Below, in pieces: positions 7,600 to 55,688 of a stretch of 55,806 bases of DNA. Each line of letters starts with the position of its first letter. Within the stretch, counting starts at the first letter, position 1. A model generated the notes under the pieces. That model was given only the letters and a program-made list of their open reading frames with translations, ran no database searches and had not been told where the DNA came from. The translations under genes and the position numbers were made by a program. The stretch lies in the UHGV virus genome UHGV-0167626. One strand, written 5' to 3'. Source of the DNA: a virus.

Positions 7600-7762
7600 G
7601 CTGGCTTAATGCGCCTTTGACACGCGACTTCCGCCACTACCGGAGTATTGCCCGGTAGTTCACCAGCCCGCAGCGACAAACTGCGTGTTTTTTATTGTCT
7701 GTCAACATGTCAAAGAGCTTAGAGTTTTTTGTAAGGCCGTTAGTTTGGCGACTGGGACGGCC

Positions 7763-8050
7763 TTACTTTATTTCCTTATCCAGATCCAGCTGGAGGCGGT
7801 GTACCTTTTCCCAGTTTTTGGAATCAACCGGGTTACTTCTGTCGAAGTAAGGGAACAGTGCTGAACAATACCTGTTAATGTAGCACAGCAGGCGATACTT
7901 TTCATTTCGTTCGTGTCTGCATTCCTCTTGTAGCTTGGATACTTTCTTCTGGATAGAGATGATTTCTTTTTCTAATTTACTTTGGGATTTGGTCTGTGAA
8001 GTGGGTACACTTTGTACCTTTACTTCAAATTTTTCAGTGGTGTTTGGCAT
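7763..8050 (-). CDS. Small leader-controlled protein (module A)
   Basis: Likely start ATGCCAAAC at 8050; upstream extension in the ORF track is the structured leader. Confidence 0.65.
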   Translation of the reverse strand: MPNTTEKFEVKVQSVPTSQTKSQSKLEKEIISIQKKVSKLQEECRHERNEKYRLLCYINRYCSALFPYFDRSNPVDSKNWEKVHRLQLDLDKEIK

Positions 8051-8260
8051 TTGACAACTAAAAATTTGATTAATAATTTTTTGGACAAAAGGAGAAGCGG
8101 AGCCTCTCCAAATGTCGCCAAACACCCATAACCTCAAAGAATTATGTGTCAGAGAAACTCCGCTATATTGCGAATTTTTCGATATGTATAAACACAACAT
8201 ACCGAGGTTATAAATGTTTGGCACTGCAAACATGGCAAATTCCTCTGAATTAACCAAGAT
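8041..8260 (-). promoter_or_regulatory. Antisense-keyed leader module A (key TGCCAAACA)
   Basis: Key at 8215-8223 and over the ATG (8041-8049), complement at 8114-8124; -7-like CATGTTTG at 8227-8234. Confidence 0.65.
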
Positions 8261-8330
8261 TTTCGACCAAATATTTTCTAAATTCCGCAACATTTTTCTT
8301 CAATTTATTATTAATCAATTACTTTTTATT

Positions 8331-8373
8331 TGTTCCTGCCGGGGAATCGAACCCCAGTTGAACCGTTCAGGAT
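8331..8373 (-). ncRNA. Anticodon-less tRNA-like element 2
   Basis: TCCTG/CAGGA stem plus GGGG-TTCGATT-CCCC T-arm, ends ACA; near copy at 55704-55746. Confidence 0.5.
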
Positions 8374-8550
8374 TTTTTTATGTTTTCTGACCGATGGAAA
8401 ATGTGTTTGTAAATTGTATTTCCTCGTTGGTCTTTCCCAATGGGGATGTGCTGGATGTGGTCAAATTTTCTTCCTTTGCCGACTTTCCCTCTTTTGTTTG
8501 AGCTGTAAATGTTTCCTTGCATATTTTCAATTTTTAGTTGTTAAATTCTG

Positions 8551-8621
8551 AGGTCGGTGCGGGATTCGAACCCGCGTACCCAGTTTTGCGGACTAGCTCC
8601 TGACCACTCGGACAACCGACC
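8551..8621 (-). tRNA. tRNA-Cys(GCA)
   Basis: GGTCGGT/ACCGACC acceptor, AGTGG D-loop, CTAGT-CCGCAAA-ACTGG anticodon arm, GCGGG-TTCGAAT-CCCGC T-arm; CCA not encoded. Confidence 0.9.
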
Positions 8622-8676
8622 CTTTGCTGGAGCAACCTATATATGGCCACAGTTACAATTGGCTGCCCCGGACTGA

Positions 8677-8865
8677 TTAATTGTTGTTTATAATAGCACT
8701 CTGAGCCTTTACAAGTTCCTTATATCTCGATAATTCCTGTTTCAGTGTCTCACATTCCTGAAAGTATCTGTTCCAGGATGTATTTGCAGCATCGAGCTGC
8801 TTTTTTAAGTTTTCAATTTCTTTATCCTTTTTGTCACTTACATTTACATTTGCATTGTCGTTCAT
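8677..8865 (-). CDS. Hypothetical coiled-coil protein
   Basis: ORF in early operon. Confidence 0.6.
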   Translation of the reverse strand: MNDNANVNVSDKKDKEIENLKKQLDAANTSWNRYFQECETLKQELSRYKELVKAQSAIINNN

Positions 8866-9123
8866 AACTTTTCCCTTTTAAAATTTTGCCTTTCGTGCTA
8901 TCTCCCGACAGGACTAGGGCTACAATGTACTTTATATGTCACTTAAAAAAGGTCCGGTGTGAATGGAGATATTGTGGTGTAAAGAAAAGAATGTCACCGG
9001 ACCAAAGAACTCACGACATATTTTTATACAGGTTCCGCACCCTGTTCCCCCTTACTTCCACCCGGGGCGGTGTTAGGTTTACTTTGTTTAAGCCGGACCA
9101 AACCTTGCTAAATTCCTCCGCCA

Positions 9124-9312
9124 TTACGTATCTTTAGTGTCCCAACTTCTATAACTTCGGTATGGTTTTACCTGCTTCTTCTCCGGCCACATCGCCCAAC
9201 CCAAAATACCGGACATTATTGCGAAAGGAAGACTATGGTACTGCCCTCCGTAAATACTCCCTCCTAATATTCCAAGGGCAAGAAGAAAGGCTAATATTGA
9301 AAAAGTTCTCAT
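9124..9312 (-). CDS. Small two-TM membrane protein
   Basis: Two hydrophobic segments; overlaps upstream stop. Confidence 0.6.
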   Translation of the reverse strand: MRTFSILAFLLALGILGGSIYGGQYHSLPFAIMSGILGWAMWPEKKQVKPYRSYRSWDTKDT

Positions 9313-9581
9313 AGTTTATCAATTATTTTATATGCTTCAATGACTTCCCGGGTTTTTACCCGCCATTTCTGATTCCCATTTCCCTTATCAGGATTAATTA
9401 ACTTCGCTGCAATTGCCTTTTCTAACCTGCTCCGACTGCCCAAATGCCTAATTGCTTCATTCCGGCTCATATATTCCCCGTAAGTTTCGGCAACGGCTTC
9501 CTTGACAACGCTCTTGGTGAAATCAATAAATTCAGCCATCGACATTTCGATACGATCGGTATTTCGGAGGATCAGGTTCAT
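9309..9581 (-). CDS. Excisionase-like winged-helix DNA-binding protein
   Basis: YMSRNEAIRHLG..RLEKAI..KWRV pattern; position after Cro-like gene. Confidence 0.55.
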   Translation of the reverse strand: MNLILRNTDRIEMSMAEFIDFTKSVVKEAVAETYGEYMSRNEAIRHLGSRSRLEKAIAAKLINPDKGNGNQKWRVKTREVIEAYKIIDKL

Positions 9582-9583
9582 AA

Positions 9584-9790
9584 TTATTTTAAGCGTATAA
9601 CATTAATTCCATCTATAACACCCGCACTCGTTGCTTTATAAGAATATCCATCCCGATTAAGAAACCTTACTATTTTTCTTACGTGCATCTCTGTATATTC
9701 CCGGAATGGGACAAAAAGACACGTTCCAGCCTGCATATCTAAAATCTGGCTTTTTAAAGTTTTTGGTTTATTAATTGCTATTTCATCCAT
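9584..9790 (-). CDS. Cro-position small DNA-binding protein
   Basis: First gene of early operon, divergent from repressor; TATCTTTG -7 box at 9858-9865 (minus). Confidence 0.55.
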   Translation of the reverse strand: MDEIAINKPKTLKSQILDMQAGTCLFVPFREYTEMHVRKIVRFLNRDGYSYKATSAGVIDGINVIRLK

Positions 9791-9947
9791 TTTTTTTATG
9801 TTTGTATATTATTTATTTTTTATGCTCATGGATTAGTGTTTTCATCTAATCACAAGGCAAAGATATGGTAATATTTCATTAATTCAAAACATATAGTGCT
9901 AAAAATAGTGATATATTATTTATTTATAAACATTATAAATAACAATC

Positions 9948-10316
9948 ATGGAAGATGAGCGATTTATATCTTATTGCATAGATGCGGTAAATTATATTTT
10001 AGATAATAAAAGGATTACCGACAAAGAATGTGAAGAAAAATTTGGAAAGTATTATGGGGATATGGTATTCAATGAATTAGTTAGACTTAAGGTTGGAAAT
10101 CAGGTAGGATATGGTCCAGTTGAAAAAAATAAAAATACCCATTCTTTTATAGAATATTTTAATAAAAGAATGGAAAATATAAAACAAAAAAAGGCTGATG
10201 CTGCATTAGACAGAGAGAGTAAATGGACATCTATTAAATATACCAAAAGAGCTTATATAATTTCAATTATAGCAATTCTTTTGTCTGTTATATCTATAGT
10301 AGTTTCTTCATTATAG
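9948..10316 (+). CDS. AT-rich protein with C-terminal TM helix
   Basis: ORF ending AYIISIIAILLSVISIVVSSL. Confidence 0.7.
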   Translation: MEDERFISYCIDAVNYILDNKRITDKECEEKFGKYYGDMVFNELVRLKVGNQVGYGPVEKNKNTHSFIEYFNKRMENIKQKKADAALDRESKWTSIKYTKRAYIISIIAILLSVISIVVSSL

Positions 10317-10494
10317 TTATGGCAATAGCGATTAGAGAGAATATAATGGAAATATATGAATATATGATTGTTCGTTTGAGATACCAGATTCTATCTTTCT
10401 CTTTAGGAGAATACCTGTTATTAGTTCGATGATAATGAGTAATTTGTTTGTTTGTTTTCGATTTTTGGAATAAGGTTTTAATTAGCCTGATCAT
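10294..10494 (-). CDS. Small protein with C-terminal TM helix
   Basis: ORF with own TATATTTG box near 10523-10530. Confidence 0.5.
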   Translation of the reverse strand: MIRLIKTLFQKSKTNKQITHYHRTNNRYSPKEKDRIWYLKRTIIYSYISIIFSLIAIAITIMKKLL

Positions 10495-10546
10495 AACAGC
10501 TGAGTTTAAAATTAATTCATTACAAATATATTAATAAATTAATAAT

Positions 10547-11098
10547 ATGTACGAATATGAAACAAGTAAAACAAAACTGAGGCTTACACAGTTTTTAAAA
10601 AAAATAGGGTCTAACAACAATCAATTTGTTGTAAAAATGGGATATGCTCCTAGTTTTTTAAATTCTAAAAGTGGAATATCAGAGGATCGGTTAACAGAAA
10701 TTGCAATAGCATACCCCAATCTTAACATGAATTGGCTTTTAACAGGTGACGGGGAAATGCTTAAAAATATTTCTGAAAATTCAGAAAATAATCTGAAACA
10801 AACGATTTCTGAGGAACGTAATACAGAAAGTACTAACGAAAATCAAGACGTTCCAATGAGTGAGATATTAGAATTTATGAAGCTCGTGTCGTCCAATATG
10901 GATAGCCAATTGAAGTCCTTCCACCTGCAAATGAGTGAACAACGGGTAGAAATGAAAGAACAAAGAAGCATAAAAGTAACATTAAAGTTATTTTCTCCAT
11001 TACTTTCGAAATTTTCCACTTCGGTAGATTCTGCCATTTTTAATACGTCTCCATCCTTATCCTGTACAAACGGGCGTTTTTCAATACCCAAATCCTGA
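10547..11098 (+). CDS. CI-like HTH repressor, C-terminus probably truncated near 10970
   Basis: HTH plus YPNLNMNWLLTGDGEM typical of Bacteroidales phage repressors; tail reads as antisense of a convergent gene. Confidence 0.75.
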   Translation: MYEYETSKTKLRLTQFLKKIGSNNNQFVVKMGYAPSFLNSKSGISEDRLTEIAIAYPNLNMNWLLTGDGEMLKNISENSENNLKQTISEERNTESTNENQDVPMSEILEFMKLVSSNMDSQLKSFHLQMSEQRVEMKEQRSIKVTLKLFSPLLSKFSTSVDSAIFNTSPSLSCTNGRFSIPKS

Positions 11099-11217
11099 TA
11101 CATGTTTTCAGGAAACATAGTGTAGTTTTCCAAAATTTCAGCAACCTTATTACTAATTTCTATTTTTTCGTTGTTTACGAAAACTGCCTTACCTGTTTTG
11201 TAGTTATAAATTTTCAT
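10843..11217 (-). CDS. Hypothetical protein, probably 3'-truncated near 10965
   Basis: Own TATATTTG box near 11256-11263; C-terminus reads as antisense of repressor. Confidence 0.55.
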   Translation of the reverse strand: MKIYNYKTGKAVFVNNEKIEISNKVAEILENYTMFPENMYQDLGIEKRPFVQDKDGDVLKMAESTEVENFESNGENNFNVTFMLLCSFISTRCSLICRWKDFNWLSILDDTSFINSNISLIGTS

Positions 11218-11389
11218 AGCCTTATTTTTTAAAATTATGTATTATTATTTCGATACAAATATAACACATATATTAATATTACACAAGAAAAAACAAAAAT
11301 ATTTTTCACTTATGTATTGAAAAATATAAAATTCTTTCCGGATATACATTATTTATCTATCTTTGTCGATAATATTAAATATAACATAT

Positions 11390-11635: not shown

Positions 11636-11661
11636 CGGGGCTTAACCTCGCTATTCTACTT
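11625..11661. terminator. Bidirectional hairpin between convergent genes
   Basis: aagtagaatagcgggg / cctcgctattctactt arms. Confidence 0.6.
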
Positions 11662-11860: not shown

Positions 11861-11871
11861 TACTTCTTTTT

Positions 11872-12571: not shown

Positions 12572-12580
12572 TATGTAAAA

Positions 12581-13081: not shown

Positions 13082-13083
13082 TA

Positions 13084-14441: not shown

Positions 14442-14444
14442 GCG

Positions 14445-35618: not shown

Positions 35619-36239
35619 TTAGTTAATTGGCATATCAAATACCTGCTTTAAAACATTTTCGGGATAGGTTTTGACTTTCCCGAATCGCGGATCTGGTATT
35701 TCCTCCGGTTCAATGCCAAGTTGTCTGCAAAGATTACATGCCTTCCTTCCCAAACTTGCTGCCAGTTTTATTCCGACCTGTATTTTAAGAAGTGTTCCAT
35801 ATCCGGCAATGGTAAACCAGTTTTGGTGTGTAGTCTGTTTTGCCTCAATAACTTTAACTCGGTCATCTATCTCTGAAATACGTTTTTCCTGTGCTTGCAG
35901 GATTTGGATTGACTGAGCTAAAATGTCAAGCTGACTTAATGGTTTGGTTGCACGTTTTTCTATTTCGATAAAATAATTACGTATTTGTTCACCGGTTTCG
36001 GTACGTGCCATCATGGAAAGGCGTTTAGCAAAGTCGATAGAGAGGGCAAAATCAATTGTTCTCCCACTTAGTGGGAGTTGTGCATAATCTTCATTTTCAA
36101 CAGCAAAAGAATTATTAGTAATATTCTTTTTATACCAATTAGCCCAATGCTGAGGCGCAAACCCTAATTTTTCGTAAAGCTCCCGTGCAGAAACGGCTTT
36201 CTTACCGTCATTCTCCACAATCTTAATCAACTCATTCAT
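35619..36239 (-). CDS. AntA/AntB-type antirepressor
   Basis: AVSARELYEKL..DFAKRLSMM..GEQIRNYFIEIEK; DPRFGKVKTYP. Confidence 0.85.
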   Translation of the reverse strand: MNELIKIVENDGKKAVSARELYEKLGFAPQHWANWYKKNITNNSFAVENEDYAQLPLSGRTIDFALSIDFAKRLSMMARTETGEQIRNYFIEIEKRATKPLSQLDILAQSIQILQAQEKRISEIDDRVKVIEAKQTTHQNWFTIAGYGTLLKIQVGIKLAASLGRKACNLCRQLGIEPEEIPDPRFGKVKTYPENVLKQVFDMPIN

Positions 36240-36537
36240 GGTTTTCTCTTTTTAAATGTTGAAGTCTGAAAACATCCACACACGCAGAATGATAATCTAC
36301 ATTTGTAGGATGCGTTTTGCAATATCCGCGGTATTCCTCAAAATGTCCGCATGAAAGAATGAAGAAATAAGCCTGATTCTTACAATTCTTTTCGATTTCA
36401 AACAGCCTTTTGTAGGTTTCAAGCTGCTGCTTTAGTGATAAGATTTCGCCCGTTTCGTGAGTGTGACGCACATTGTCTGTGCCTTTCCCATGGTTGGTGG
36501 TTTGATTTGTGTTTGTCATGATATATTTATTAAGCAC
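36232..36537 (-). CDS. Small leader-controlled protein (module B)
   Basis: EIEKNCKNQAYFFILS, paralogous to 55157-55453. Confidence 0.7.
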   Translation of the reverse strand: MLNKYIMTNTNQTTNHGKGTDNVRHTHETGEILSLKQQLETYKRLFEIEKNCKNQAYFFILSCGHFEEYRGYCKTHPTNVDYHSACVDVFRLQHLKRENHE

Positions 36538-36795
36538 TTAGGTACAGAAAAACGGCGTACCTTTCCCGCTGCTTAATCACCTCATGACTGGCTAAAATCT
36601 GCCATTACAACAGATTTACGGGGGTATACGCCGTTAGACAAATATTTTCCTTTCCAAACAACAAAATACAAAGTATGGAAAATACAAATCAATAAGGCAT
36701 AAAAAAACCGCCATACAGCGGGTACTCTTACTCCGCCAGTCATTAGAAGATTAAGCAAGACAAATGTATGAAATATTTTTTGATATTCACAACAT
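36529..36795 (-). promoter_or_regulatory. Antisense-keyed leader module B (key TGCTTAATC)
   Basis: Key 36749-36757 and at GTG start 36529-36537, complement 36570-36578; TACATTTG 36761-36768. Confidence 0.7.
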
Positions 36796-36948
36796 CTAAA
36801 TAAAACTTTCTTTTTTATTGGAAATTTATTCTGTTTTAAGTCCTTAAACTTCTATTGTATAGGAATGTAACTTTTTATAAAGCAGCTATTTATGTCGAAT
36901 TTTGAAATGTCCGGCAATGTTGCCGGGGTAATTCAAAATTCGATAAAA

Positions 36949-37920
36949 ATGAGCGAATCAAAAACTTTTGTTTTCCCGGAAAGCGGGAACGGAGGCGGAA
37001 GTGGAATGTTAGCCATGTTGGCTCCTTTGCTTCAGCAAAAAGGGATCGATCCGAACCTACTTGTAGCTATGCAAGGCCGTAATAATAACGGATTCGGTGG
37101 AGAAGGCGGATGGTTTATTTGGGTTATTTTCTTATTCTTCCTCATGGGTTGGGGTAACAACGGATGGGGAAATGGTGGCTTTGGCGGTGGCAATGGAGCA
37201 GCAGGAATCCCCAATCTGATTAACAACGACACAGGGAGGGAGTTACTAATGAGTGCCATTCAAGGGAACGGTCAGGCTATCAACAATCTGGCAACAAATC
37301 TGAACTGTTCAATCGGTCAGGTTCAGCAGGCTATCAATGGTGTAATGTCACAGATTCAACAGGTGGGAAATCAGGTAGGGCAGAGTTCTATGCAGATTAT
37401 TAACGCTATTCAATCCGGTAACTGTCAGATTGCACAACAGATTGCATCATGCTGCTGTGAGAACCGTCTAGCTATCTGTCAGCAGACAAACACCCTGCAA
37501 AATGCAATTAATGGTGTTGCAACCGGGCAGGAAAGAGGATTTGCATCCGTGGCCTATGAGACACAACGTCAGACCTGTGACTTGCAAAATTCCATCAAGG
37601 AAAGCACACAGCAGATTATTGCCGGCCAACGTGCTGCCGAAATGCGTGAGATGCAGAACAAAATTGACAAGCTCCGTGAAGAAAACAGCACTTACAAGAG
37701 TTCAGCTATGACTTCTCAAATTGTAGGCCAGGCTACCGCACCTCTTGGAGCCGCTTTGACAGATTTAAGCGCACGCCTTGCCAAGATTGAATGCAAGCAG
37801 CCGGAAACTGTGACTGTGCCTTACAGTCCTATTGCGGCAGTTCCCAACTGTGTGGCATACCAATACGGCTTGTATGGTGGTTTTAATCCTTATGCAGCCG
37901 GTAATGGCTTTTGGGGTTAA
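36949..37920 (+). CDS. Gly/Asn-rich membrane-anchored coiled-coil protein with CCC motif
   Basis: Likely start MSESK; WFIWVIFLFFLMGWG TM, Q/N-rich helices, SCCCENR. Confidence 0.8.
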   Translation: MSESKTFVFPESGNGGGSGMLAMLAPLLQQKGIDPNLLVAMQGRNNNGFGGEGGWFIWVIFLFFLMGWGNNGWGNGGFGGGNGAAGIPNLINNDTGRELLMSAIQGNGQAINNLATNLNCSIGQVQQAINGVMSQIQQVGNQVGQSSMQIINAIQSGNCQIAQQIASCCCENRLAICQQTNTLQNAINGVATGQERGFASVAYETQRQTCDLQNSIKESTQQIIAGQRAAEMREMQNKIDKLREENSTYKSSAMTSQIVGQATAPLGAALTDLSARLAKIECKQPETVTVPYSPIAAVPNCVAYQYGLYGGFNPYAAGNGFWG

Positions 37921-37938
37921 TTGAGAAAGGAGGCTATT

Positions 37939-38280
37939 ATGGCAGTATATCCTTTTCAATTCGTAAACCGTAGGGGCTCTGCGGCTATATCGACCTCGGG
38001 CGTAACGGTCAATACTGCTAATGTAGTGTTTTCCTTTCCCAATCATGCCTTTGTGAACGCATGGTACAGAGGGACGATATACATTAACATTGCCCAGACG
38101 ATACCTACCGGGACAACCGGCACACTTCCCATTCTGTTCGAGACCAATGGGACCACACAGTCGATCACTAAATATAACGGGGAAGCACTGACTGCAGCAG
38201 ATATTCCCGGTACTGGTGTGTATGAGTTCTGGTTTGACCGTGCAACCAACACGTTGCAGATTATGACCGGAGTGGTTTAA
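37939..38280 (+). CDS. Beta-rich cassette protein
   Basis: Likely start MAVYPF after GAAAGGAGG. Confidence 0.75.
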   Translation: MAVYPFQFVNRRGSAAISTSGVTVNTANVVFSFPNHAFVNAWYRGTIYINIAQTIPTGTTGTLPILFETNGTTQSITKYNGEALTAADIPGTGVYEFWFDRATNTLQIMTGVV

Positions 38281-38328
38281 AACAACTACGGACGGGAGAA
38301 ATCCCGTCCATTAAAGAGTTAATTAATT

Positions 38329-38862
38329 ATGCCTTTTCAGAATTTAAGAATAAACAGCGAGTTCTTTGTCCTTCATAAGGACGGCACTCCATATATTGAA
38401 GTCGGTTCCGTAACCGGGGTTTCCAATCCCGTACCGGAGTTTATGCAACAACCTCTTCCTTATGGACAACCTCCGAGAATGGTGGTCGACATAACAATCA
38501 AGGTCGGGGAGCAGACTGTCACTTTCCAGAAAATACCGGCAATGTCAGACATTGCTGATGCGAACTTTCCCGGTGGTGGGAATATGGTGATATCCGGTTC
38601 ACGGGAATCTATGAACGCGGAAGTTGCTGCAATGAGAAACCGTTCATCGGAGATATTAGGCAGCGTAGACCATCACCGTTCAGTTCTGGAGTCTTGCGAC
38701 AAGATGCTTCAAATTCTTAATCCGGAATTTGCAGAGCGCCAACGTCAGGATGCAGAGAATAAAGCCCTAAGACAAGAGTTGAGTGAACTGAAAGCAATGA
38801 TGGCTGATTTCTTTAAGTCTTCCGAAAAGGCATCTGGTAGTAACAATTCTAAAAAACAATAA
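38329..38862 (+). CDS. Cassette protein with C-terminal coiled coil
   Basis: ORF. Confidence 0.75.
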   Translation: MPFQNLRINSEFFVLHKDGTPYIEVGSVTGVSNPVPEFMQQPLPYGQPPRMVVDITIKVGEQTVTFQKIPAMSDIADANFPGGGNMVISGSRESMNAEVAAMRNRSSEILGSVDHHRSVLESCDKMLQILNPEFAERQRQDAENKALRQELSELKAMMADFFKSSEKASGSNNSKKQ

Positions 38863-38865
38863 GCT

Positions 38866-39147
38866 ATGTATATGGTAGAAATATCTGAAAACAAAGTCGA
38901 GAAGATGTCCGACTATGCAGAAAAGATGCTTCGCTATGGTGGCAAACTGATGCAATGCCTAGAGGAACTTTCTGAAGGGGAAAGCATGGGGCAACGCGAG
39001 TACGACGAAGATGATTACGACGATGATGAAATGGGTGAACGCGGCGGGTATGGCCGTGGTGGATACGGAAACCGTGGAGGTTATCCCGGTGGAATGAACC
39101 AAAGACGCGGTGTAAGAGGTACCGGAAGATACTCCCGTTATCGTTAA
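38866..39147 (+). CDS. Cassette protein with acidic then RGG-rich tail
   Basis: DEDDYDDDE..RGGYGRGG..RRGVRGTGRY. Confidence 0.75.
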   Translation: MYMVEISENKVEKMSDYAEKMLRYGGKLMQCLEELSEGESMGQREYDEDDYDDDEMGERGGYGRGGYGNRGGYPGGMNQRRGVRGTGRYSRYR

Positions 39148-39197
39148 TGTTTAATAAGAGGTGCGGATTATTCCGCCCTCTTTTAAAAATAAAAGAT

Positions 39198-39620
39198 ATG
39201 CACAAACAACCACTTGATTTATACGATGAAATCCCTGCTGAGATGAGATCATATCTCAGGCACAACGGATGGAATTTTAACAAAAAAGCTTGTGATCTGG
39301 CCGTACATGGTATGAAAAAGATAAATCCTGCAACGGGGAAGAAAGAACGAATTGAACCTATGACCAAGGAACAAGTAGAAGAATTACTTTCTAAAAATGG
39401 AGTTAAACTGGAACATAATGTAGGATATAATTTTGTCTACGTATGCAATATGGGGCGGGCGGACTATTTAAAATCAAGTATCCCGGACGAGCAGCATTTA
39501 GCTCTTTATGTGAAAGACGTTATTGATGATCCTGACAATGAAGGCGGTAATGTGTTCAGGAAATGGTATGCAGATTGTGTCGCCAAGGGTGAACCGGTAG
39601 AATGGGAGGAAATGATATAA
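39198..39620 (+). CDS. Cassette protein
   Basis: Likely start MHKQP; YL..GWNFNKK, NMGRADY..SSI motifs. Confidence 0.75.
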   Translation: MHKQPLDLYDEIPAEMRSYLRHNGWNFNKKACDLAVHGMKKINPATGKKERIEPMTKEQVEELLSKNGVKLEHNVGYNFVYVCNMGRADYLKSSIPDEQHLALYVKDVIDDPDNEGGNVFRKWYADCVAKGEPVEWEEMI

Positions 39621-39621
39621 T

Positions 39622-40056
39622 ATGATCCGGCAGAGGTTTGAACTAGGTAAACATGATTGGGAAGTATTTGCCTATTATGCGGTAGATACTTATTATGTAG
39701 ACGAGATTATGGACAGGCTATTCAGTATCGGATGCCGTGACGAAAATATCCGTACTGCATATAATAACCTTACTGCCGGGCAACTCGATACCGGACTGAC
39801 CTATTCAAACAATGCAACCCGTCAGACTGTAATGGTAATAGCTATCACTTCTTCCGCAAAAGAGTTTGAAAAATCATGGCGGCATGAGTGCGGACATCTT
39901 GCTACACATATTTGTCAGGCTTTTGATATTACGCCATACGGAGAAGAAATACAATACCTAGGACAGGACATTGTGGAAGCGACATGGGACATAGCAAAGA
40001 ACTTCCTTTGTGAGTGTCATTGTTGCAAGAAAAAGAAAAAAGAATTATTAAAATGA
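39622..40056 (+). CDS. HExxH putative metallopeptidase
   Basis: WRHECGHL plus downstream GEE. Confidence 0.65.
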   Translation: MIRQRFELGKHDWEVFAYYAVDTYYVDEIMDRLFSIGCRDENIRTAYNNLTAGQLDTGLTYSNNATRQTVMVIAITSSAKEFEKSWRHECGHLATHICQAFDITPYGEEIQYLGQDIVEATWDIAKNFLCECHCCKKKKKELLK

Positions 40057-40217
40057 AGAATAAACAGCTGAAAAAAGCATTGAAAAGCAATACACCAATA
40101 AATAGTCTGTATGCTTTAATTCCTGCCGGACAACGGGATGCATTTAAGAAATTTGCAGCAATGTTCGGATTTAATGATGAAAAGATAAAAAAGATCCTGG
40201 CAAACGAAAAGAATTAA
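40053..40217 (+). CDS. Small cassette protein
   Basis: Coupled ORF from MKNKQ. Confidence 0.55.
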   Translation: MKNKQLKKALKSNTPINSLYALIPAGQRDAFKKFAAMFGFNDEKIKKILANEKN

Positions 40218-40224
40218 ACACACC

Positions 40225-40320
40225 ATGACCGAAAAGTTTGACATACTTGTAAACTTAGCCGACAACGCAGCAAGCAGCTATATCAGCGAAATAGCCCTGT
40301 TTGCTTTAAGATGCCTGTAA
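40225..40320 (+). CDS. 31-aa peptide MTEKFDILVNLADNAASSYISEIALFALRCL
   Basis: ORF just before terminator gagggga/tcccctc-TTTTTT (about 40363-40388). Confidence 0.4.
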   Translation: MTEKFDILVNLADNAASSYISEIALFALRCL

Positions 40321-40457
40321 GGCCGCGTAAATATTTAGTCGTGAACATATCGGAAGGTGTGAGAGGGGAGTTGTGTCCCCTCTTTTTTGTAACTTTATGC
40401 AATGTTGATGCGTATATGTTAAAAATGCCATTATAAAATGATTTTCTGGATTTTTTG

Positions 40458-40572
40458 TTTGTAAATCATATTTCCAGAATCTATATTTGTGGCATAATTA
40501 TGCTCTTGGCTTCGTATGTTCTACCAATTTTGGTTTAATAATGAGCATGCCGACCCAAGAGCCTTTGTTTTT
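40458..40572 (+). promoter_or_regulatory. Promoter and structured leader of NYN gene
   Basis: TTTG-N20-TATATTTG; gctcttgg/ccaagagc stem enclosing inner stem. Confidence 0.65.
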
Positions 40573-40581
40573 TATAATGAT

Positions 40582-41286
40582 ATGAAATCAAACAATAAGC
40601 TAGAATCTAATTTTAGTGTACCAGTCAAAATAGCTGTTCTAATAGACGGAGGATTTTTTATTAAAAGATATAATTATTTATATAATAAGGGAAAAAACAA
40701 AACTCCTGAGGAAGTTGCTGATGACATTTATACATTAGCTCATTCACATGTTGGGAAAGAAAATTATCTTTATCGTATATTTTTCTACGACTGTGTACCT
40801 TTTTCAAAAAGAGTTCATAATCCTATTTCTAAAAAATGTATTGTTTTTGAGAGAAGTCCTGAAGCTATATTTAGGAATAAAATATTTGAAGCCTTAAAAC
40901 AAAAAAGAAAAGTTGCACTTAGACTAGGATATCTTAAGGATTCTGGCAATTGGCAAATAAGACCAAATAAAATAAAGGAATTATTATCTGGTTCATTGAA
41001 AATAGAGGACTTACAAGAAAGTGATGTTTATTACGAATTAAGGCAAAAAAGTATAGATATGAAGATAGGGGTAGATATTGCTTCTTTATCATTAAAGCAT
41101 TTTGTTGATAGAATTGTACTTATATCTGGTGATGCTGATTTTGTTCCAGCATCTAAATTAGCGAGAAGGGAAGGCATTGATTTTATCTTGGATCCTATGA
41201 TGGCTCATGTAGATAACTCTCTATTTGAACATATTGACGGAATGAAGTCTCCCAAAATACCACCTAGAAGGAAACAAACTAAGTAA
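40582..41286 (+). CDS. NYN (PIN-like) domain ribonuclease
   Basis: LIDGGF, QKSIDMKIGVD, LISGDADFVP..ARREG. Confidence 0.9.
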   Translation: MKSNNKLESNFSVPVKIAVLIDGGFFIKRYNYLYNKGKNKTPEEVADDIYTLAHSHVGKENYLYRIFFYDCVPFSKRVHNPISKKCIVFERSPEAIFRNKIFEALKQKRKVALRLGYLKDSGNWQIRPNKIKELLSGSLKIEDLQESDVYYELRQKSIDMKIGVDIASLSLKHFVDRIVLISGDADFVPASKLARREGIDFILDPMMAHVDNSLFEHIDGMKSPKIPPRRKQTK

Positions 41287-46723: not shown

Positions 46724-47545
46724 TTATACCAATTCTTTTTGTTTTAGAAATTTGTTTACAAAATAGATTTGCCCCTTCCCTGTCACATAAGTAGTAAACA
46801 CTGTAAAAGGTGTTTCTCCCGGATTAGATATAGGCCTTTCAGATACCCAAAATAGGTCTCTTTCAGATGATGCCTGTGTGGGGGTATAGTAAGTAGCATA
46901 CTTGTTTTTGGATTTACTCCAGCGTTTATGTCTTATCAGATATTTCTTTTCAACAAACCAATCATATAATCGTTGGGCCCCGATCGGAATCCCGTTTTGT
47001 GTGATAATTTTTGCAAGATCACGTACAAGTATGTTTGTATTACTTACTTTTACACTTTCCGTGAATACTACACACGGTTTTGTTTCTTCTATTATTTTAA
47101 TTTTTTCAGCTTCGAGTTGTTTTAACTTTTCGTCTTTCTTCTTAATAGTTTCTTGTGCTACTAAAATGGCACGAGCCATAATAATTTCAGGTGTATCGTC
47201 TTCAGAAGATACTATATAACCTCCATTTTTACGAATAGATGGAAGCACTTCACTTGTTACCCATTTTTTGACTTTTTTTGCTTTTTCTATTTTTGAAGAC
47301 AGAACAAGTGAATAAAAACCAGATTCTGTAATTACAACCATATTCCTGTTTTGGCTGCCGTCGTGAATGGCGACGGTAGCTTTATCTTCTTCATCAACAT
47401 GGTTAGCAATTGCATCTCTTGGATTTGCATATCCGAGCATTGTTGCAACATCATTTGCAACAAATAAAGGCTCGTTATTTTCGTTTGCTACTGTACGGAT
47501 TTCACCGAACTGTTCGTTTTTAAATATCTGAATATTATTTCCCAT
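46724..47545 (-). CDS. BRO-N plus KilA-C antirepressor
   Basis: IFKNEQFGEIRT..DVATMLGY..WVTSEVLPSIRKNGGY..VTGKGQIYF. Confidence 0.9.
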   Translation of the reverse strand: MGNNIQIFKNEQFGEIRTVANENNEPLFVANDVATMLGYANPRDAIANHVDEEDKATVAIHDGSQNRNMVVITESGFYSLVLSSKIEKAKKVKKWVTSEVLPSIRKNGGYIVSSEDDTPEIIMARAILVAQETIKKKDEKLKQLEAEKIKIIEETKPCVVFTESVKVSNTNILVRDLAKIITQNGIPIGAQRLYDWFVEKKYLIRHKRWSKSKNKYATYYTPTQASSERDLFWVSERPISNPGETPFTVFTTYVTGKGQIYFVNKFLKQKELV

Positions 47546-47547: not shown

Positions 47548-47838
47548 TTAATTCAATTTAGTTTTATCCAATATTACAAATCCCATATCGGGTGTTATGA
47601 GAATCCAATCGGGAATTATCCCCAAATTAGCAGCTAGAATTGATTGCTTCATGTCGGGATTTTTTGTGAACATATCTTTGATATTCCTATATCCATTACA
47701 CCTTGCAAAATTGTCGTCAAATTTTATTCTGACAGAATTATCAAAATAATCATGACGGAAAGTACATGGTATCCCATTATACTTCTTTTGAACAATACGG
47801 TAATCAGCGTACTGTTCTATAATTTCATAATCATCCAT
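47548..47838 (-). CDS. Hypothetical protein in antirepressor operon
   Basis: ORF. Confidence 0.6.
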   Translation of the reverse strand: MDDYEIIEQYADYRIVQKKYNGIPCTFRHDYFDNSVRIKFDDNFARCNGYRNIKDMFTKNPDMKQSILAANLGIIPDWILITPDMGFVILDKTKLN

Positions 47839-47844: not shown

Positions 47845-48138
47845 TTATTTTTCTTCGGTTAATATCTGCTTCATTCTGTCAACAAGATACGAAACTTTCG
47901 CATAGAACCGGCAAACACACCTCAAAGCGTATTCAAGATCCGGTTCATCATGATTAAATTCGACAAGGTTGGACACCTCGATAATTGCTTCGTCGCCTCT
48001 TAGTGTTGAAGAGATTTCCAATAGTTCTTCGACGTTGATTGAAGGAATAGTTACAGTAGTTTTAGCCGTTTCGTGGCCATAACGTGCTTCATCAATACCT
48101 TGTACCGATGTTGACAAATTCTTTTCCGTGATAAGCAT
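47845..48138 (-). CDS. Small leader-controlled protein (module C)
   Basis: Starts ATGCTTATCA, the module key. Confidence 0.65.
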   Translation of the reverse strand: MLITEKNLSTSVQGIDEARYGHETAKTTVTIPSINVEELLEISSTLRGDEAIIEVSNLVEFNHDEPDLEYALRCVCRFYAKVSYLVDRMKQILTEEK

Positions 48139-48360
48139 TATCCCTAAGAATTTATTTAAAATGATGAGTAGAAATATAAAAACGGTTCCACTCTTTCCCG
48201 CTGCTTATCACCTAAAGGGCTGTGGGTACATTAATACTCCACACGGGGGTTGTGAAACCGTGTATTTAAAGGCATAAAAAATGCCCGCAGTACGGCGAGC
48301 CTACTCGCCCTTTAGTATGATAAGCACTACAAACATACGGCATTTTTCCGACAAATCAAA
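48129..48360 (-). promoter_or_regulatory. Antisense-keyed leader module C (key TGCTTATCA)
   Basis: TTTG-N19-TATGTTTG; key 48318-48326 and 48129-48137, complement 48202-48210. Confidence 0.7.
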
Positions 48361-51714: not shown

Positions 51715-51716
51715 AT

Positions 51717-51935: not shown

Positions 51936-53284
51936 GTTTTTTTATTTTGATTTAACTTTAGTAGATTTTCTACTTCCCCGATGGCTTTGAAAATCTGATA
52001 AACGAGTTGAGGTACCATGGAATTACCATAAGCTTTTATGGATTCTGCTCTCACCCAAGATGCTGTCCGTTCACATTCTTCGACAATCTTCTTAGTCGCC
52101 AATGCAATTTCATATGACAACTCTGGCATAATGTTTCCAAATTGCTGGGCGAATTGTTCTTTATATTTCTGTCCAAATGGTGAACTTGCAAATGTTCCGT
52201 ACTTCCGCAAATAGCACAATACCCTTCCCGATGTTTCCTCGCTAAATTGTGATAAGCCGTTCTGTTCTTGTTCATATCGTCTATTCTCCGATGTGCGCTG
52301 CAAGACTTCGAGCAATAAATTCGGTTCTGGAATCTCGAATAATCCTCCAATCTGTTCCCGAACCTTCTTCTTTTGAAAGGCTTCCCACACACGGGGCAAG
52401 TCTTCTCTTCTAATATATTCTTTGATGGCATCATAAACTTCTGTTTTTATATATCGCACCACATTATTGGAAATCCCATCATATCTGAAACGAACAGGGG
52501 ATTGAGATGGGAAGTTTTCCCAGCATGATGAGCAATTAAATGATTCAATTGTGAATCCCTGGTTTTCCCGTCGTTGCGGTCTTTGGGCGTCCCTGGCTTC
52601 CAGTAACTCTTTATCGGTGTTGGCAGTAACTTCAAATTCATAAATTCCGTTTTTCCCTTGTTGCATACCTTCAGTCCTTGCGTTTGAACAGTTGGCAATA
52701 GTTTCCCCTCCGTGTGCAATAAACCAGATTCTGTCCCTTCTGTGCGGCGCTCCGACGGCACAAGCCGGTATAATAATCGGCTGGACTGAATAACCGATAC
52801 TTTCGAGGTCATTGCAGATTCTGTCAGTAATAAATTGCTGACGTATTTCCGTTTCCAGGTAACTTTCTCCTTCGAGATCCGTGTAACTTCCCACTTCAAT
52901 TTCATCACCGGGGAGTACCATGCTTGTGATTCCAGCAACGTTTTCACCAATAAACCAATTGGGTCGGATTTCGTCAACTCCCCTAAGCACTTCCGGCCAG
53001 AGGTAGCGGTCATCTTCCGCTCCTTTTCTTGATCCGGCACAAGAAAAAGGCTGACAGGGGAATCCTGCTGTAAGAATATCGATTTTTCCCCGCCATTCTG
53101 AGAAATCTGTTCCGAATATGTTTTCATAATGTTTTATATGAGGATAATAATATTTAAGTACTTGATGGCAGAATGGATCTATTTCACAAGAAAATGCATT
53201 CCGCCATCCCATCCACATGGCCGCTAATTCACATGCTCCTATGCTAGTGCAGAAAGAAGCGTGCACATATTCTTTTTGTATCAT
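51932..53284 (-). CDS. dcm: C5 cytosine DNA methyltransferase, main subunit (motifs I-VIII, X)
   Basis: GFPCQPFS, GENV, PHRRDRIW, KAYGNSMVPQ. Confidence 0.85.
   Translation of the reverse strand: MIQKEYVHASFCTSIGACELAAMWMGWRNAFSCEIDPFCHQVLKYYYPHIKHYENIFGTDFSEWRGKIDILTAGFPCQPFSCAGSRKGAEDDRYLWPEVLRGVDEIRPNWFIGENVAGITSMVLPGDEIEVGSYTDLEGESYLETEIRQQFITDRICNDLESIGYSVQPIIIPACAVGAPHRRDRIWFIAHGGETIANCSNARTEGMQQGKNGIYEFEVTANTDKELLEARDAQRPQRRENQGFTIESFNCSSCWENFPSQSPVRFRYDGISNNVVRYIKTEVYDAIKEYIRREDLPRVWEAFQKKKVREQIGGLFEIPEPNLLLEVLQRTSENRRYEQEQNGLSQFSEETSGRVLCYLRKYGTFASSPFGQKYKEQFAQQFGNIMPELSYEIALATKKIVEECERTASWVRAESIKAYGNSMVPQLVYQIFKAIGEVENLLKLNQNKKT
52051..52434 (-). CDS. HNH endonuclease nested in methyltransferase (+1 frame)
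   Basis: CPVCGK..YCSKSC; CAICG..LQVHHLD..NN..NLETLCQSCHMKLH. Confidence 0.75.
   Translation of the reverse strand: MMPSKNILEEKTCPVCGKPFKRRRFGNRLEDYSRFQNRIYCSKSCSAHRRIDDMNKNRTAYHNLARKHREGYCAICGSTEHLQVHHLDRNIKNNSPSNLETLCQSCHMKLHWRLRRLSKNVNGQHLG
52447..53127 (-). CDS. Overlapping second methyltransferase subunit (TRD/motif IX-like)
   Basis: +1 frame; LLPT repeats and LNPLFVSDMMGFP. Confidence 0.65.
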   Translation of the reverse strand: MKTYSEQISQNGGEKSIFLQQDSPVSLFLVPDQEKERKMTATSGRKCLGELTKSDPIGLLVKTLLESQAWYSPVMKLKWEVTRISKEKVTWKRKYVSNLLLTESAMTSKVSVIQSSRLLYRLVPSERRTEGTESGLLHTEGKLLPTVQTQGLKVCNKGKTEFMNLKLLPTPIKSYWKPGTPKDRNDGKTRDSQLNHLIAHHAGKTSHLNPLFVSDMMGFPIMWCDI

Positions 53285-53568
53285 TATAGTTTATCTATTT
53301 CGTTTCGTTGGCACTCGATAAAGTACCGGTACTTGTTAACCGTTTCCATGAGTTTAATGTTTGACTTTTCCAATTCCTGATTTCGGGCTTTGAGTTTTTC
53401 GCATTCGTCAAATTTTGCATCATAGGACCTGGAAAGCATGTCGAACTGATGGATACTTACAACTTCATCGGATTCTTTCTTTTTGTCCTGGTATTGGGGT
53501 TGTTTTTCTACTTCTTCAGCAATACCGGAGTAGTCTCCTGATAAGGATGTGATAATTAGTGCTATCAT
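53284..53568 (-). CDS. Hypothetical coiled-coil protein
   Basis: ORF. Confidence 0.55.
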   Translation of the reverse strand: MIALIITSLSGDYSGIAEEVEKQPQYQDKKKESDEVVSIHQFDMLSRSYDAKFDECEKLKARNQELEKSNIKLMETVNKYRYFIECQRNEIDKL

Positions 53569-53586
53569 GATTTTTTATTTAATTTT

Positions 53587-53892
53587 TTATACAAAATCCG
53601 CCTCTTTTACAAATATCCCGTTGATAAGTTTCCCCTTCCGGTCTTTGATTTCGTTGTATGCATATTCAACACATTCACTGAAATCAATACCCAGTTGTTT
53701 TGATATACAGATGAGAGTGACAACCGTATCCCCGATGCTGTCTGTCTGTTTTTCCCTATCGCCTTTGTTTATTGCCCGGGCTAGTTCTCCGAGTTCTTCA
53801 ACTGTTTTACACATCTGTACTTTTGGATCCTGGGTATGCAGGTTTCTGTCGACAACCCATTGCTCAATTTTTTTAATAGTATTTTCAATCAT
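53587..53892 (-). CDS. MazG-like nucleotide pyrophosphohydrolase
   Basis: EELGELA..DSIGD..AYNEIKDRKG. Confidence 0.85.
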   Translation of the reverse strand: MIENTIKKIEQWVVDRNLHTQDPKVQMCKTVEELGELARAINKGDREKQTDSIGDTVVTLICISKQLGIDFSECVEYAYNEIKDRKGKLINGIFVKEADFV

Positions 53893-54080
53893 GTTTTTTT
53901 ATAATTTACACATTCAATTTTTCTGTCCACGCAGTTTTCATGCGGCACCACCGAAAACGGGCAATCAACCAATCCGAATTTCCACGGTTGGTAGTAGATA
54001 CATTTCAGGCAGTCGGAATAATTTGTTGAAAGCCGGGAAATGATCGGTTTTGGTTGTTTGGGTTTCGGGGTGCGGGGCAT
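53889..54080 (-). CDS. Small Cys-rich protein
   Basis: Coupled ORF. Confidence 0.5.
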   Translation of the reverse strand: MPRTPKPKQPKPIISRLSTNYSDCLKCIYYQPWKFGLVDCPFSVVPHENCVDRKIECVNYKKT

Positions 54081-54222
54081 ATATTTTATTATTAAAAAGG
54101 ACAGATACTACAAAACAGTTAACTTTGTAGCGGATTTTAGCCCGTACCGCAGCGAGATATGGCAAGGCTCAAAGCGGGCCGGGGAGTAAACCTCCTTTTT
54201 GTTTAACTTAAAAAGTAACATC

Positions 54223-54297
54223 ATGGCTAAAATCCAAGTTCGGGTTAGAACCACAGTGCGTACTACTATCAGAACAAGAATCAGAGTACGTAAGTAA
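54223..54297 (+). CDS. 24-aa Arg-rich peptide MAKIQVRVRTTVRTTIRTRIRVRK
   Basis: A-rich initiation region, TAACTTTG at 54120-54127, hairpin 54308-54332. Confidence 0.55.
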   Translation: MAKIQVRVRTTVRTTIRTRIRVRK

Positions 54298-54369
54298 GTC
54301 TAACCATGGGTGGATGCACTGTACATCCACCCTTAACTTTATCTGCCCTTTTATATTCATACTGATTCC

Positions 54370-55149
54370 TTATGCAACTATTTTCTGATTATATATTTTT
54401 GTAATAAACTCTTTTCCTTTCTCTGTCCAATACAGATGCTGCCGGGTTAGTATTTCTCCGGATGAATTTGTGTAAGGATGCGGACGATGATCAGCATACC
54501 CTTTATCCCTATATGGTGAACAAAGAAAGTATATCCCGGATTGTTTGTACTGTACTTTCCAGTCAACCAATAATTTGTTGAGTTTAACCGCAGATATTCC
54601 TAAATGTAACGCAATCATATTGATTGTGAGAAGCCCGGAACTATTCAGTGTCTTATCATAGTATTCAAGTTTGGGAGCAGCTTCAACCAATTCTTTGGTT
54701 TGCATTTCAACGGTTAACTTTAATCGTTCTTTTTCTGCTCTTTCTTCTTTCAACTTTGTTGCGAGCTGAATAATCAGATCCGGATTATTGACCATTGCTT
54801 CGAGTGTTGGTTGGGTTGCTGTAAAACCATGTTTCAACAATTCTTTAATATGGTTATTGCACAATATATAAAATTCAGGACTAAGCCATTGAGCAAATGC
54901 TAATGCTATATCTTCGTGCATCCATGTACCACCATTATCACCATTTATAACTTTCACTAAATCAGACGGTATGCAATTCTGCATAGCGCAATAAGAGTTT
55001 ATAAAATCCTTACATTGCTGTGTTCTAAGCCAAAATGCTGGTTGTTTATCAAAACTTTTTGCCATTTCAGTTGCATTGGCATATACATTACCATCTTTAA
55101 TTGTCATGGTAATATTATTCCCATTGTAATTAAAAATTTTATTTTCCAT
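54370..55149 (-). CDS. KilA-N plus KilA-C antirepressor
   Basis: ANATEMAKSF..GTWMHEDIAL.FAQWLSPEF; APKLEYYD..WTEKGKEFI. Confidence 0.9.
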   Translation of the reverse strand: MENKIFNYNGNNITMTIKDGNVYANATEMAKSFDKQPAFWLRTQQCKDFINSYCAMQNCIPSDLVKVINGDNGGTWMHEDIALAFAQWLSPEFYILCNNHIKELLKHGFTATQPTLEAMVNNPDLIIQLATKLKEERAEKERLKLTVEMQTKELVEAAPKLEYYDKTLNSSGLLTINMIALHLGISAVKLNKLLVDWKVQYKQSGIYFLCSPYRDKGYADHRPHPYTNSSGEILTRQHLYWTEKGKEFITKIYNQKIVA

Positions 55150-55156
55150 AGTATGG

Positions 55157-55453
55157 TTATTTTGTAGTAAATGAATCAAGATAAAGCTGCGCGAGGCAAG
55201 CCCCGTGATAGTCGAGATTTGCCCGGTGTGTTTTATGGAACTCGGCGAACCTTTGGAAGTTACCGGAACTTAGAATGAAGTAATAAGCTTCGTTCTTACA
55301 GTTCTTTTCAATCTCTAATTTTTGTCTTACTTGGATTAGTTGTTGTTGCAACTCTTTTACTTCGGAAAGTAATTTACCCTCGTTTCGTCGGGGTGGACGT
55401 GCTGTAATGGTACTATGATTCACATTACTTACAGATTCACTTCGCTTTGCCAT
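55157..55453 (-). CDS. Small leader-controlled protein (module D)
   Basis: EIEKNCKNEAYYFILS; starts ATGGCAAAGCGA. Confidence 0.7.
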   Translation of the reverse strand: MAKRSESVSNVNHSTITARPPRRNEGKLLSEVKELQQQLIQVRQKLEIEKNCKNEAYYFILSSGNFQRFAEFHKTHRANLDYHGACLAQLYLDSFTTK

Positions 55454-55688
55454 ACGTTGATGAATTATAAGTTAATAAAAATAAGAAAGTCGCCGACTTC
55501 CTGTTCTTTTGGCAAAGCGAACATAACACTTACAAAGAAGGCTATGCAACTCAGGACTTCGACGACTTATAATTTACTTATGGATATAAGTCACGATATG
55601 GTATAAAAAATACCTTCATTTGTAATTTGTGGTGCTCAATTGGCAAAGCGAGCACCACAAATATACGGCTATTATCCATAATTGCAAA
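55442..55688 (-). promoter_or_regulatory. Antisense-keyed leader module D (key TGGCAAAGCGA)
   Basis: TTTG-N19-TATATTTG; key over ATG 55442-55452, complement 55510-55521 and 55641-55651. Confidence 0.65.

Follow-up and report, generated by a model that had tools for sequence, protein, structure and literature searches.

Four units, here termed A, B, C and D, lie on the minus strand of UHGV-0167626, the sequence of a Bacteroidales-type gut phage that was analysed over its whole length of 55,806 nt (the window). In each of them a promoter is followed by a leader site, a predicted structured RNA, a start-site target, a short ORF and an antirepressor-type or recombination gene; leader site and start-site target share a short sequence, the key, whose complement is carried by the RNA. 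The original prediction had proposed this common grammar, with ORFs of ~95-100 aa, antirepressors after B, C and D and recombination genes after A. The four units were confirmed at the positions claimed, the ORFs proved to be 95, 95, 97 and 98 aa long in A, B, C and D, respectively, and the nature of the downstream genes was borne out by domain matches. The -7 boxes of A-D are of the Bacteroidota type. Promoters, ORFs and genes are located as follows:

8227..8234, minus strand: promoter -7 box of unit A, first base deviating from the consensus
7763..8050, minus strand: leader ORF of unit A, 95 aa, first codons under the key, no family match
7731..7766, minus strand: hairpin after ORF A, loop complementary to the class-1 loop
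36761..36768, minus strand: promoter -7 box of unit B
36232..36536, minus strand: leader ORF of unit B, 95 aa, same family as ORF D, with a two-part start target (36536-36529 plus the AUG at 36519)
35619..36239, minus strand: AntA antirepressor gene after B (PF08346)
48330..48337, minus strand: promoter -7 box of unit C
47845..48138, minus strand: leader ORF of unit C, 97 aa, first codons under the key
47548..47838, minus strand: 96-aa ORF between ORF C and the Bro-N + KilAC gene
46724..47545, minus strand: Bro-N + KilAC antirepressor gene after C
55658..55665, minus strand: promoter -7 box of unit D
55157..55453, minus strand: leader ORF of unit D, 98 aa, first codons under the key, predicted all-helical
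54370..55149, minus strand: KilA-N + KilAC antirepressor gene after D

The genes after ORF A encode a RecT-like protein, an exonuclease, a helicase and an SSB. Rha, AntA, KilA-N, Bro-N or KilAC domains were found in 34 of the 65 downstream proteins tested. The leader ORFs themselves matched no Pfam or PHROG family; for ORF D, an AlphaFold model (pLDDT 67, three helices) had no match in the PDB, and its Atlas matches comprised unnamed proteins only. The hairpin at 7731-7766, included in the originally predicted span, does bear the A key and is conserved, but it does not co-vary with that key, and a fourth target after the leader ORF was rejected as a general feature (2/112 cognate vs 1.9% non-cognate).

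A detector for the promoter-key-antikey-start arrangement, run on the phage sequence and on 15 shuffled sequences, scored A, B and C at -84, -67 and -60 and returned one weak plus-strand match at -35; the shuffled sequences gave a single weak match (-32). Unit D was missed because its first key is inverted. The detector also misses some modules (of the L029/L044 type, spotted by eye) and yields a few false matches, and a stricter earlier version recovered only C.

Predicted RNAs, leader sites and attenuators

The predicted RNAs fall into two classes, class 1 (A and D) and class 2 (B and C), and are preceded by the following leader elements:

8193..8223, minus strand: leader site of unit A (first key plus extension), subtype without U-tract
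8096..8164, minus strand: predicted RNA of unit A, class 1, 69 nt, antisense segment 8135-8116
36735..36757, minus strand: leader site of unit B
36701..36721, minus strand: terminator-like hairpin plus U7 of unit B, predicted attenuator
36551..36635, minus strand: predicted RNA of unit B, class 2, 85 nt, antisense segment 36592-36570
48307..48326, minus strand: leader site of unit C, its 3' end forming a predicted antiterminator
48276..48300, minus strand: terminator-like hairpin plus U-tract of unit C (P 0.01 free, 0.75 with the key blocked)
48182..48261, minus strand: predicted RNA of unit C, class 2, 80 nt, antisense segment 48220-48202
55626..55661, minus strand: first key of unit D, within a 12-bp inverted repeat
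55605..55625, minus strand: distal leader complement of unit D, reaching a U-tract at its end
55488..55567, minus strand: predicted RNA of unit D, class 1, 80 nt, antisense segment 55523-55509

The four stem-closed RNAs are unusually stable (z -3.7 to -4.6), none of 200 shuffles being equally stable. Together with those of the relatives, the collection comprised 62 distinct RNAs with lengths of 69-86 nt. The figure for paired positions was 96.4% across 12 seeds, and two-sided changes occurred at 16 of 16 pairs in 46 model-fitted rows; for class 2 the values were 93.7% and 12 of 20 pairs. In the stem beneath the key loop, both sides were altered each time the key altered, as would be expected if the closed RNA were under selection, beyond cis pairing alone. 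Model R1, which is blind to class 2, matched in 2 of 151 genomes searched order-wide, and RF02944 matched, below cut-off, in one; as 28-29 candidates were scored per genome, these counts are not prevalence estimates.

A key of 9-11 nt had been predicted. It was found in all units, but the complement in the leader actually extends over 20-45 nt, and in A it is closed by a G-U pair, which corrects the earlier description of that key. The placing of the key over the start codon held for A, C and D but not for B, where the key is found 10-17 nt ahead of the AUG and it is a second segment that covers this codon. The leader sites of B, C and D end at a U-tract or overlap an antiterminator, which suggests antisense-triggered attenuation in addition to start-codon blocking, as in P1 c4 and P4 CI.

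All switching was computed as equilibrium folding. In class 2 the terminator hairpin reached P >= 0.75 in all 16 leaders when the key was blocked, and stayed at P <= 0.55 in 8 of the 16 when it was free; in the other eight, including unit B, termination is predicted even without the RNA, which counts against the switch. Among class-1 leaders with a U-tract, pairing extends to the tract in 39/39, and a local hairpin at the tract was present in only 2-3 of 38; subtype A has no U-tract, which counts against the mechanism proposed below. In computed folding of the nascent transcript, the dominant state of A, B, C and un-flipped D is a cis pairing of 18-23 nt. With the leader site attached the closed RNA is absent at equilibrium (P(P1) 0.00 in A, B and C), so that its release would depend on kinetics, on a leader already occupied or on a nuclease.

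The leader RNA IsrK of Gifsy-1 activates antirepressor translation, as described in PMC4825925. The direct target here is the short ORF, to which no function is assigned, and P1 Icd, encoded at the same position, is described in PMC8201110 as blocking cell division. The trans RNA could be an activator or relief signal, or part of a type I toxin-antitoxin pair guarding the short ORF and not the antirepressor. Type I systems have a small toxic peptide, usually hydrophobic, as their target; in the four units the targeted proteins are 95-98 aa long and match no family. We regard this as quite improbable: an RNA on the AUG and a favoured terminator are both repressive, and the first ORF is not constant, the key of many relatives being placed right on a Rha, AntA or Bro-N gene.

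Key covariation among related phages

The original prediction had named co-variation of the keys across homologs as its test, and this test was passed: leader, RNA and start codon change in concert. Concerted changes at all sites were seen among variants of the A slot (MPNT/MPNH/MPKP/MPRA), the C slot (MLIT/MSIT/MTIT) and the D slot (MAKR/MPRR/MPKS), and in the B slot between this phage and L131. Over 52 unique modules, cognate pairing was stronger than non-cognate pairing both at the leader (-27.2 vs -13.5 kcal/mol) and at the start (-19.6 vs -11.1 kcal/mol). Within the phage, the strongest start pairing of each RNA was that with its own unit (-15 to -22 kcal/mol, against -6 to -12 for other starts). 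The cognate RNA ranked first for 33 of the 52 modules at the leader and for 28 at the start, modest counts that arise because many class-1 keys have a common core. Orthogonality and multi-channel immunity of the four keys are predictions that rest only on these computed pairing energies. In a metagenome pattern search, 25 of 49 matches lacked the grammar, all of them in DNA with a GC of 0.48-0.73, and were taken as chance; an annotated phage collection gave only short or unannotated matches.

Because both cis pairings are strong, and enough on their own for three-site co-variation, the antisense segment might simply toggle between leader site and start codon within one transcript to set timing or attenuation, in which case neither a diffusible RNA nor an immunity role would exist. 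This cis-only switch we consider unlikely, as co-variation extends to the closing stems and the key-loop stem, neither of which is folded in either cis state. Nor would it need the wide diversification of keys (32 distinct first-12-nt starts among the 52 modules). Stacked cassettes with truncated genes are retained, and the grammar is common to c4-2. Cassettes are also exchanged as units between slots, and this, with the stacking and the inverted loops seen in two hairpins, might point to a DNA-level element or to neutral repeats, such as recombination sites, operator repeats or duplication remnants. G-U pairs and compensatory changes fit an RNA, however, the third copy is tied to a start codon, and orientation and promoter spacing are kept, which makes a DNA-level origin extremely improbable.

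The predicted flip of the first copy in unit D was confirmed. The inverted 12-nt loop (55638-55649) occurs in this phage alone, being absent from all 18 relatives and from the three covering sequencing runs, a count in which rare variants are dropped from contigs; with arms imperfect in 6 of the 18 relatives, a programmed invertible switch was rejected. The D channel, one of the four, is predicted to be broken in this phage. No integrase was found in the window and its repressor-like gene is truncated, so that lysogeny of this very phage is only putative; a candidate att site at 10966/10967 turned out to be a deletion relative to genome G004.

Proposed mechanism and comparison with known antisense RNAs

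It is likely (probability about 0.75) that each unit is a c4/CI-type antisense immunity cassette, whose RNA, once cut out, would act in trans to shut the operon. The leader site of a new transcript would pair with the antisense segment in cis, leaving the start codon free for an early burst. The c4/CI RNAs are processed by RNase P; by analogy, a fraction of the transcripts would fold into the closed RNA, which would then be processed out and accumulate. Free RNA is predicted to bind new leaders and to cover the AUG in all units; in class 2 (B and C) its binding would break the antiterminator in favour of the hairpin and U-tract terminator, and in class 1 (D) the RNA-leader duplex would reach right to the U-tract. 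The RNA may also silence matching cassettes of superinfecting phages, in which case differing keys would provide separately locked operons and escape from the RNAs of rivals. More tentatively, and with some doubt, the cassettes could form a combinatorial RNA address code of gut Bacteroidales phages, in which each of several independently keyed cassettes in a genome locks an early operon of its own, swapping and stacking let a phage collect rivals' keys, and the cassettes together define immunity groups, the class-1 RNA supplying in trans an intrinsic terminator stem by pairing up to a hairpin-less U-tract.

Little is known about the lysis-lysogeny choice and mutual exclusion in gut Bacteroidales prophages. 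If the cassette reading is true, a short key in the genome would reveal immunity relations, a defined regulator could be assigned to the Rha/KilA/Bro/Ant genes that are ubiquitous in these phages, and the 62 natural RNA-target pairs would constitute an RNA switch library for Bacteroides engineering. An intact cassette is present in the cultured host B. thetaiotaomicron BFG-119, where it precedes the Ant gene at about 56.2-56.4 kb of NZ_CP103284.1, which makes the idea directly testable.

The P4 CI RNA overlaps kil, whereas here the RNA precedes the short ORF. As in the known c4/CI layout, described in PMC4825925 and PMC12197685, a structured RNA in the leader has complementary targets both upstream and downstream, the downstream target coincides with the start of translation of a short ORF that precedes an antirepressor or early gene, and RNA and targets co-vary between phages. 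As is predicted for the phage RNAs, processed P4 CI (with seqA/seqC) and Gifsy-1 IsrK/STnc1160 pair on both sides of themselves and cause premature termination, according to PMC4825925; in contrast to P4 CI, the units described here have no sequence match to it, belong to another host phylum and occur as several cassettes per genome. In the pT181 and pIP501 attenuators, as presented in PMC5415839, binding of the antisense RNA promotes terminator formation, which is also the prediction for class 2. Their RNAs are opposite-strand products of plasmid replication leaders, whereas here the RNA is a piece of the transcript itself, on the same strand.

The P1/P7 c4 RNA (immI: c4-icd-ant; RF01695, c4-a1b1 motif) likewise lies within the leader it controls, and it has one target upstream and another where translation of a short ORF begins, ahead of an antirepressor (as outlined in PMC12197685 and PMC8201110). 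The cassettes differ from it in their Bacteroidota promoter, the targeting of the AUG and first codons, the 20-45-nt leader duplex and the number of cassettes, as many as four with different keys in one phage. P1/P7 heteroimmunity depends on c4 sequence changes, as stated in PMC12197685, and key-set specificity between phages is already known in principle from this system. Table 1 of PMC2864571 places the C4 motif in Proteobacteria and phages, and RF01695 gave no match at E<=1 in this phage, at E<=5 in 8 loci or at E<=2 in 9 loci.

The phage RNAs share their layout with c4-2 (RF02944, clan CL00128; Weinberg et al. 2017, PMC5737381), in which a long closing stem leads through an internal loop and a short stem of 4 bp to a junction with two hairpins, followed by a U-tail; class 2 deviates in that an unpaired strand replaces the stable second hairpin. 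With a cut-off of at least 41 bits, RF02944 matched none of the four RNAs, none of 5 records and none of 16 of the 17 relative loci, the single match being a separate cassette. At L131 it scored 59.1 bits, above the cut-off, and at L358 38.8 bits, both within the full promoter-key-RNA-start grammar. The proposed c4/CI-like nature gained support from key covariation and from a c4-2 RNA in the same grammar. The four RNAs themselves match no Rfam model. Bacteroidota c4-2 RNAs or their targets may possibly be covered already in the supplement of PMC5737381. New here are the scaffolds uncatalogued in Rfam, the occurrence of as many as four cassettes with different keys in a single phage, and the possible trans terminator stem. 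Because a true c4-2 RNA stands in the same grammar at a related locus, the phage RNAs are a Bacteroidales branch of the c4 kind and not a new category.

Keyed cassettes, their predicted RNAs and the genome around them

All four minus-strand units of the original prediction are present in the window sequence. Each is a leader cassette with a fixed order (the grammar): promoter, leader site carrying the first key, predicted RNA, and the key again over the start codon of a leader ORF. Unit A precedes recombination genes (RecT-like, exonuclease, helicase, SSB), B an AntA gene, C a Bro-N+KilAC gene and D a KilA-N+KilAC gene. Unit promoters were recognised by the Bacteroidota consensus. On folding, each of the four RNAs was more stable than 200 of 200 shuffles. 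A detector built on the grammar gave scores of -60 to -84 for A, B and C; 15 shuffles yielded a single match, at -32. In 27 phage records (1.375 Mb), four of them taken in part only and all selected for holding a relative, so that the count is not a prevalence, 59 matches at -45 or better fell in 26 records; two were discarded as false, having no ORF downstream. A shuffled version of the same 1.375 Mb gave one match.

From 65 unique RNAs, 62 (69-86 nt) were kept after removal of L153, L350 and L354 as false or mis-bounded matches. The predicted fold common to all comprises a closing stem, an internal loop, a short second stem and a hairpin, with at least five U within eight bases 3' of the RNA in 61 of 62. 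A rough rule, by which a few RNAs are misplaced, assigns 44 RNAs to class 1 (the type of A and D) and 18 to class 2 (B and C). In class 1 the key occupies a hexaloop, and the 4-bp stem beneath it changes on both arms along with the key; the loop fits YUNR, the U-turn motif known from antisense kissing loops. Class-1 seeds (n=12) were 96.4% paired, and two-sided change was seen at 16/16 pairs among 46 rows fitted to the model and biased in its favour. In class 2 the pentaloop core is invariant and the antisense strand unpaired; with a hand-drawn structure the class was 93.7% paired, with two-sided change at 12/20 pairs. Two scaffolds fit neither class (L317, G168:C1 near 19396, and the middle cassette of locus L162) and represent additional RNA types within this grammar.

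The window represents a single phage. Its plus strand carries an HK97-like block of terminase, portal, protease, capsid, tail and lysis genes, and its minus strand the early genes. The two window ends adjoin each other in the mapped relatives G002 and G005, which makes the sequence an almost complete genome in circular permutation. No integrase was found within the window; G005 has a tyrosine integrase. A relative of the leader ORF of D, 60% identical, is named from Odoribacter splanchnicus, which by sequence likeness is a weak hint to the host. The early genes of relative G003 include a reverse transcriptase gene (L144:13369-14355).

Further features of the window
207-1083: two neighbouring phrog_11581 paralogs with a 74-nt coding repeat common to both
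8328-8379 and 55701-55752: 52-nt repeat, 87% identical, like a tRNA T-arm plus 3' half; copies directly upstream of promoters A and D
8550-8621: tRNA-Cys gene
36892-41286, plus strand: accessory block divergent from unit B, genes without known function, the last an NYN-domain gene

Key co-variation and predicted channels

The original prediction was staked on the keys co-varying across homologs, and they do: leader, RNA and first-codon copies change together in each slot. Since the key covers the first codons, the ORF N-terminus changes along with it (MLIT, MSIT or MTIT in the C slot; MAKR, MPRR or MPKS in D; MPNT, MPNH, MPKP or MPRA in A). The B key of related locus L131 differs from that of the window at all three sites, and ORFs B and D form one protein family, yet their keys and scaffolds differ. 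Patterns built on the scaffold alone recovered the whole grammar in 65/67 and 26/28 viral loci (the two misses among the 28 being loci cut at contig ends) and in 24/49 metagenome loci.

Across 52 unique modules, mean pairing was -27.2 kcal/mol for cognate versus -13.5 for non-cognate RNAs at the leader, and -19.6 versus -11.1 at the start. The best-ranked RNA was the cognate one in only 33/52 (leader) and 28/52 (start) modules, because many class-1 keys have a common core. Within the window, the best start partner of each RNA is its own start (-15 to -22 versus -6 to -12), and B and C have a 9-nt stretch in common. Two to four modules were present in 19 of the 27 records, with no RNA repeated within any record. 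Strong start cross-pairing occurred in 4.3% of 70 within-genome pairs versus 12.8% of 632 between-genome pairs, percentages from non-independent pairs that are no proof of selection for orthogonality. The core key of C also occurs on a different scaffold in L223, which by sequence would predict cross-immunity between unlike phages. In G167:C1:16700-18400 (L162, L315), three tandem cassettes have different keys and scaffolds, and truncated Rha genes follow the first two; the arrangement looks like serial replacement.

In a domain scan of 65 downstream proteins, chosen from 124 listed with most short leader ORFs omitted, 34 had Rha, AntA, KilA-N, Bro-N or KilAC domains, four HNH and two Lin1244_N, and 25 had no match. 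In many relatives the key lies directly on a gene of the Rha/AntA/KilA-N/Bro-N/KilAC type.

Predicted switching and two lesions

P1 c4 and P4 CI RNAs are processed by RNase P; by analogy, the cassette RNAs would be processed, accumulate and act in trans. The leader complement is long (median 35-37 pairs). When growing transcripts of A, B, C and D (the last from a relative) were folded, 18-23 nt of the leader stayed paired to the antisense segment and the AUG was free, the predicted ON state. In class 2, blocking the key, which mimics the RNA in trans, gave a GC hairpin abutting the U-tract in 16/16 leaders (P at least 0.75); in the free leader this hairpin was weak (<= 0.55) in 8/16, with window C at 0.01, and already formed in the other eight, window B included.

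Class-1 leaders have a U-tract in 39/44 cases, and the cognate RNA paired up to the tract in 39/39; non-cognate RNAs reach it in 53% of cases, so that this count is weak taken alone. Over the 16 nt that directly precede the tract, pairing was -14.7 for cognate versus -7.0 for non-cognate RNAs, and a local hairpin precedes the tract in only 2-3/38 leaders; both observations suggest, on these models, that the class-1 RNA could provide the terminator stem in trans. Yarnell and Roberts are said to have found in 1999 that oligonucleotides can supply such a stem in vitro. A competing hairpin of 3' arm and U-tail can form in 43/44 class-1 RNAs and may bear on 3'-end formation. Subtype A leaders have no U-tract and would depend on start blocking. 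In the hairpin after ORF A (7731-7766) the loop is the complement of the class-1 loop and is kept across different A keys; it could be a class-wide site.

The first key of D lies in an inverted repeat with 12-bp arms, whose 12-nt loop is inverted in the window. Its orientation is normal in 18/18 relatives with the D key (read by eye) and in 3/3 covering runs, a fourth run being without coverage. An assembly error is possible; a second inverted hairpin loop, in the hairpin after the leader ORF of L121, together with D suggests a natural template-switch inversion. With the loop inverted, leader pairing falls from -28.1 to -11.6 and the antisense segment lies over the AUG in cis (P 0.87 versus 0.05 un-flipped), so D is predicted to be stuck off in the window. 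A second regulatory lesion beside this flip is the junction 10966/10967 (window 10547-11098), where ~1.8 kb is absent relative to G004: a repressor-like HTH gene of 209 aa in G004 is truncated to 140 shared residues, and an 87-aa ORF and a P63C gene are lost.

Distribution and relation to c4 RNAs

Among ten named-genome loci, seven have the module: two Butyricimonas, Paraprevotella, Mediterranea, Pullibacteroides, Tannerella and a contig labelled Clostridia, likely mis-binned. One Tannerella locus has a partial module, and none was found at a Bacteroidetes MAG locus or a Flavobacterium locus. Cultured B. thetaiotaomicron BFG-119 has, on a circular element, a full class-2 cassette before an Ant gene.

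Comparison with Rfam, including the c4 families named for this purpose in the original prediction, gave no match for the four window RNAs, nor for 16 of 17 relative loci scanned. The exception, L131, on a contig labelled Clostridia, has a c4-2 RNA (RF02944, 59.1 bits) directly behind a B-type cassette (L131:3296-3790), in a cassette of its own with a Bacteroidota promoter, leader site (-24.7), hairpin and U-tract, start target (-19.5) and 100-aa ORF. A sub-threshold c4-2 match in a genome of the same order also has the full grammar. No description of such Bacteroidales cassettes was found in the mainly open-access literature, and supplements (PMC2864571, PMC5737381, PMC8040213) may hold the motif unnamed. 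Judged by sequence, the cassettes are real and uncatalogued, co-vary strongly and form a Bacteroidales branch of the c4/CI antisense type, unusual in having several keyed copies per phage. The units are not members of RF01695 (C4) or RF02944; given a c4-2 RNA within the same grammar and a c4-2 consensus with the same layout as the window RNAs, they would function in the c4/CI manner and are probably remote relatives within the c4 clan.
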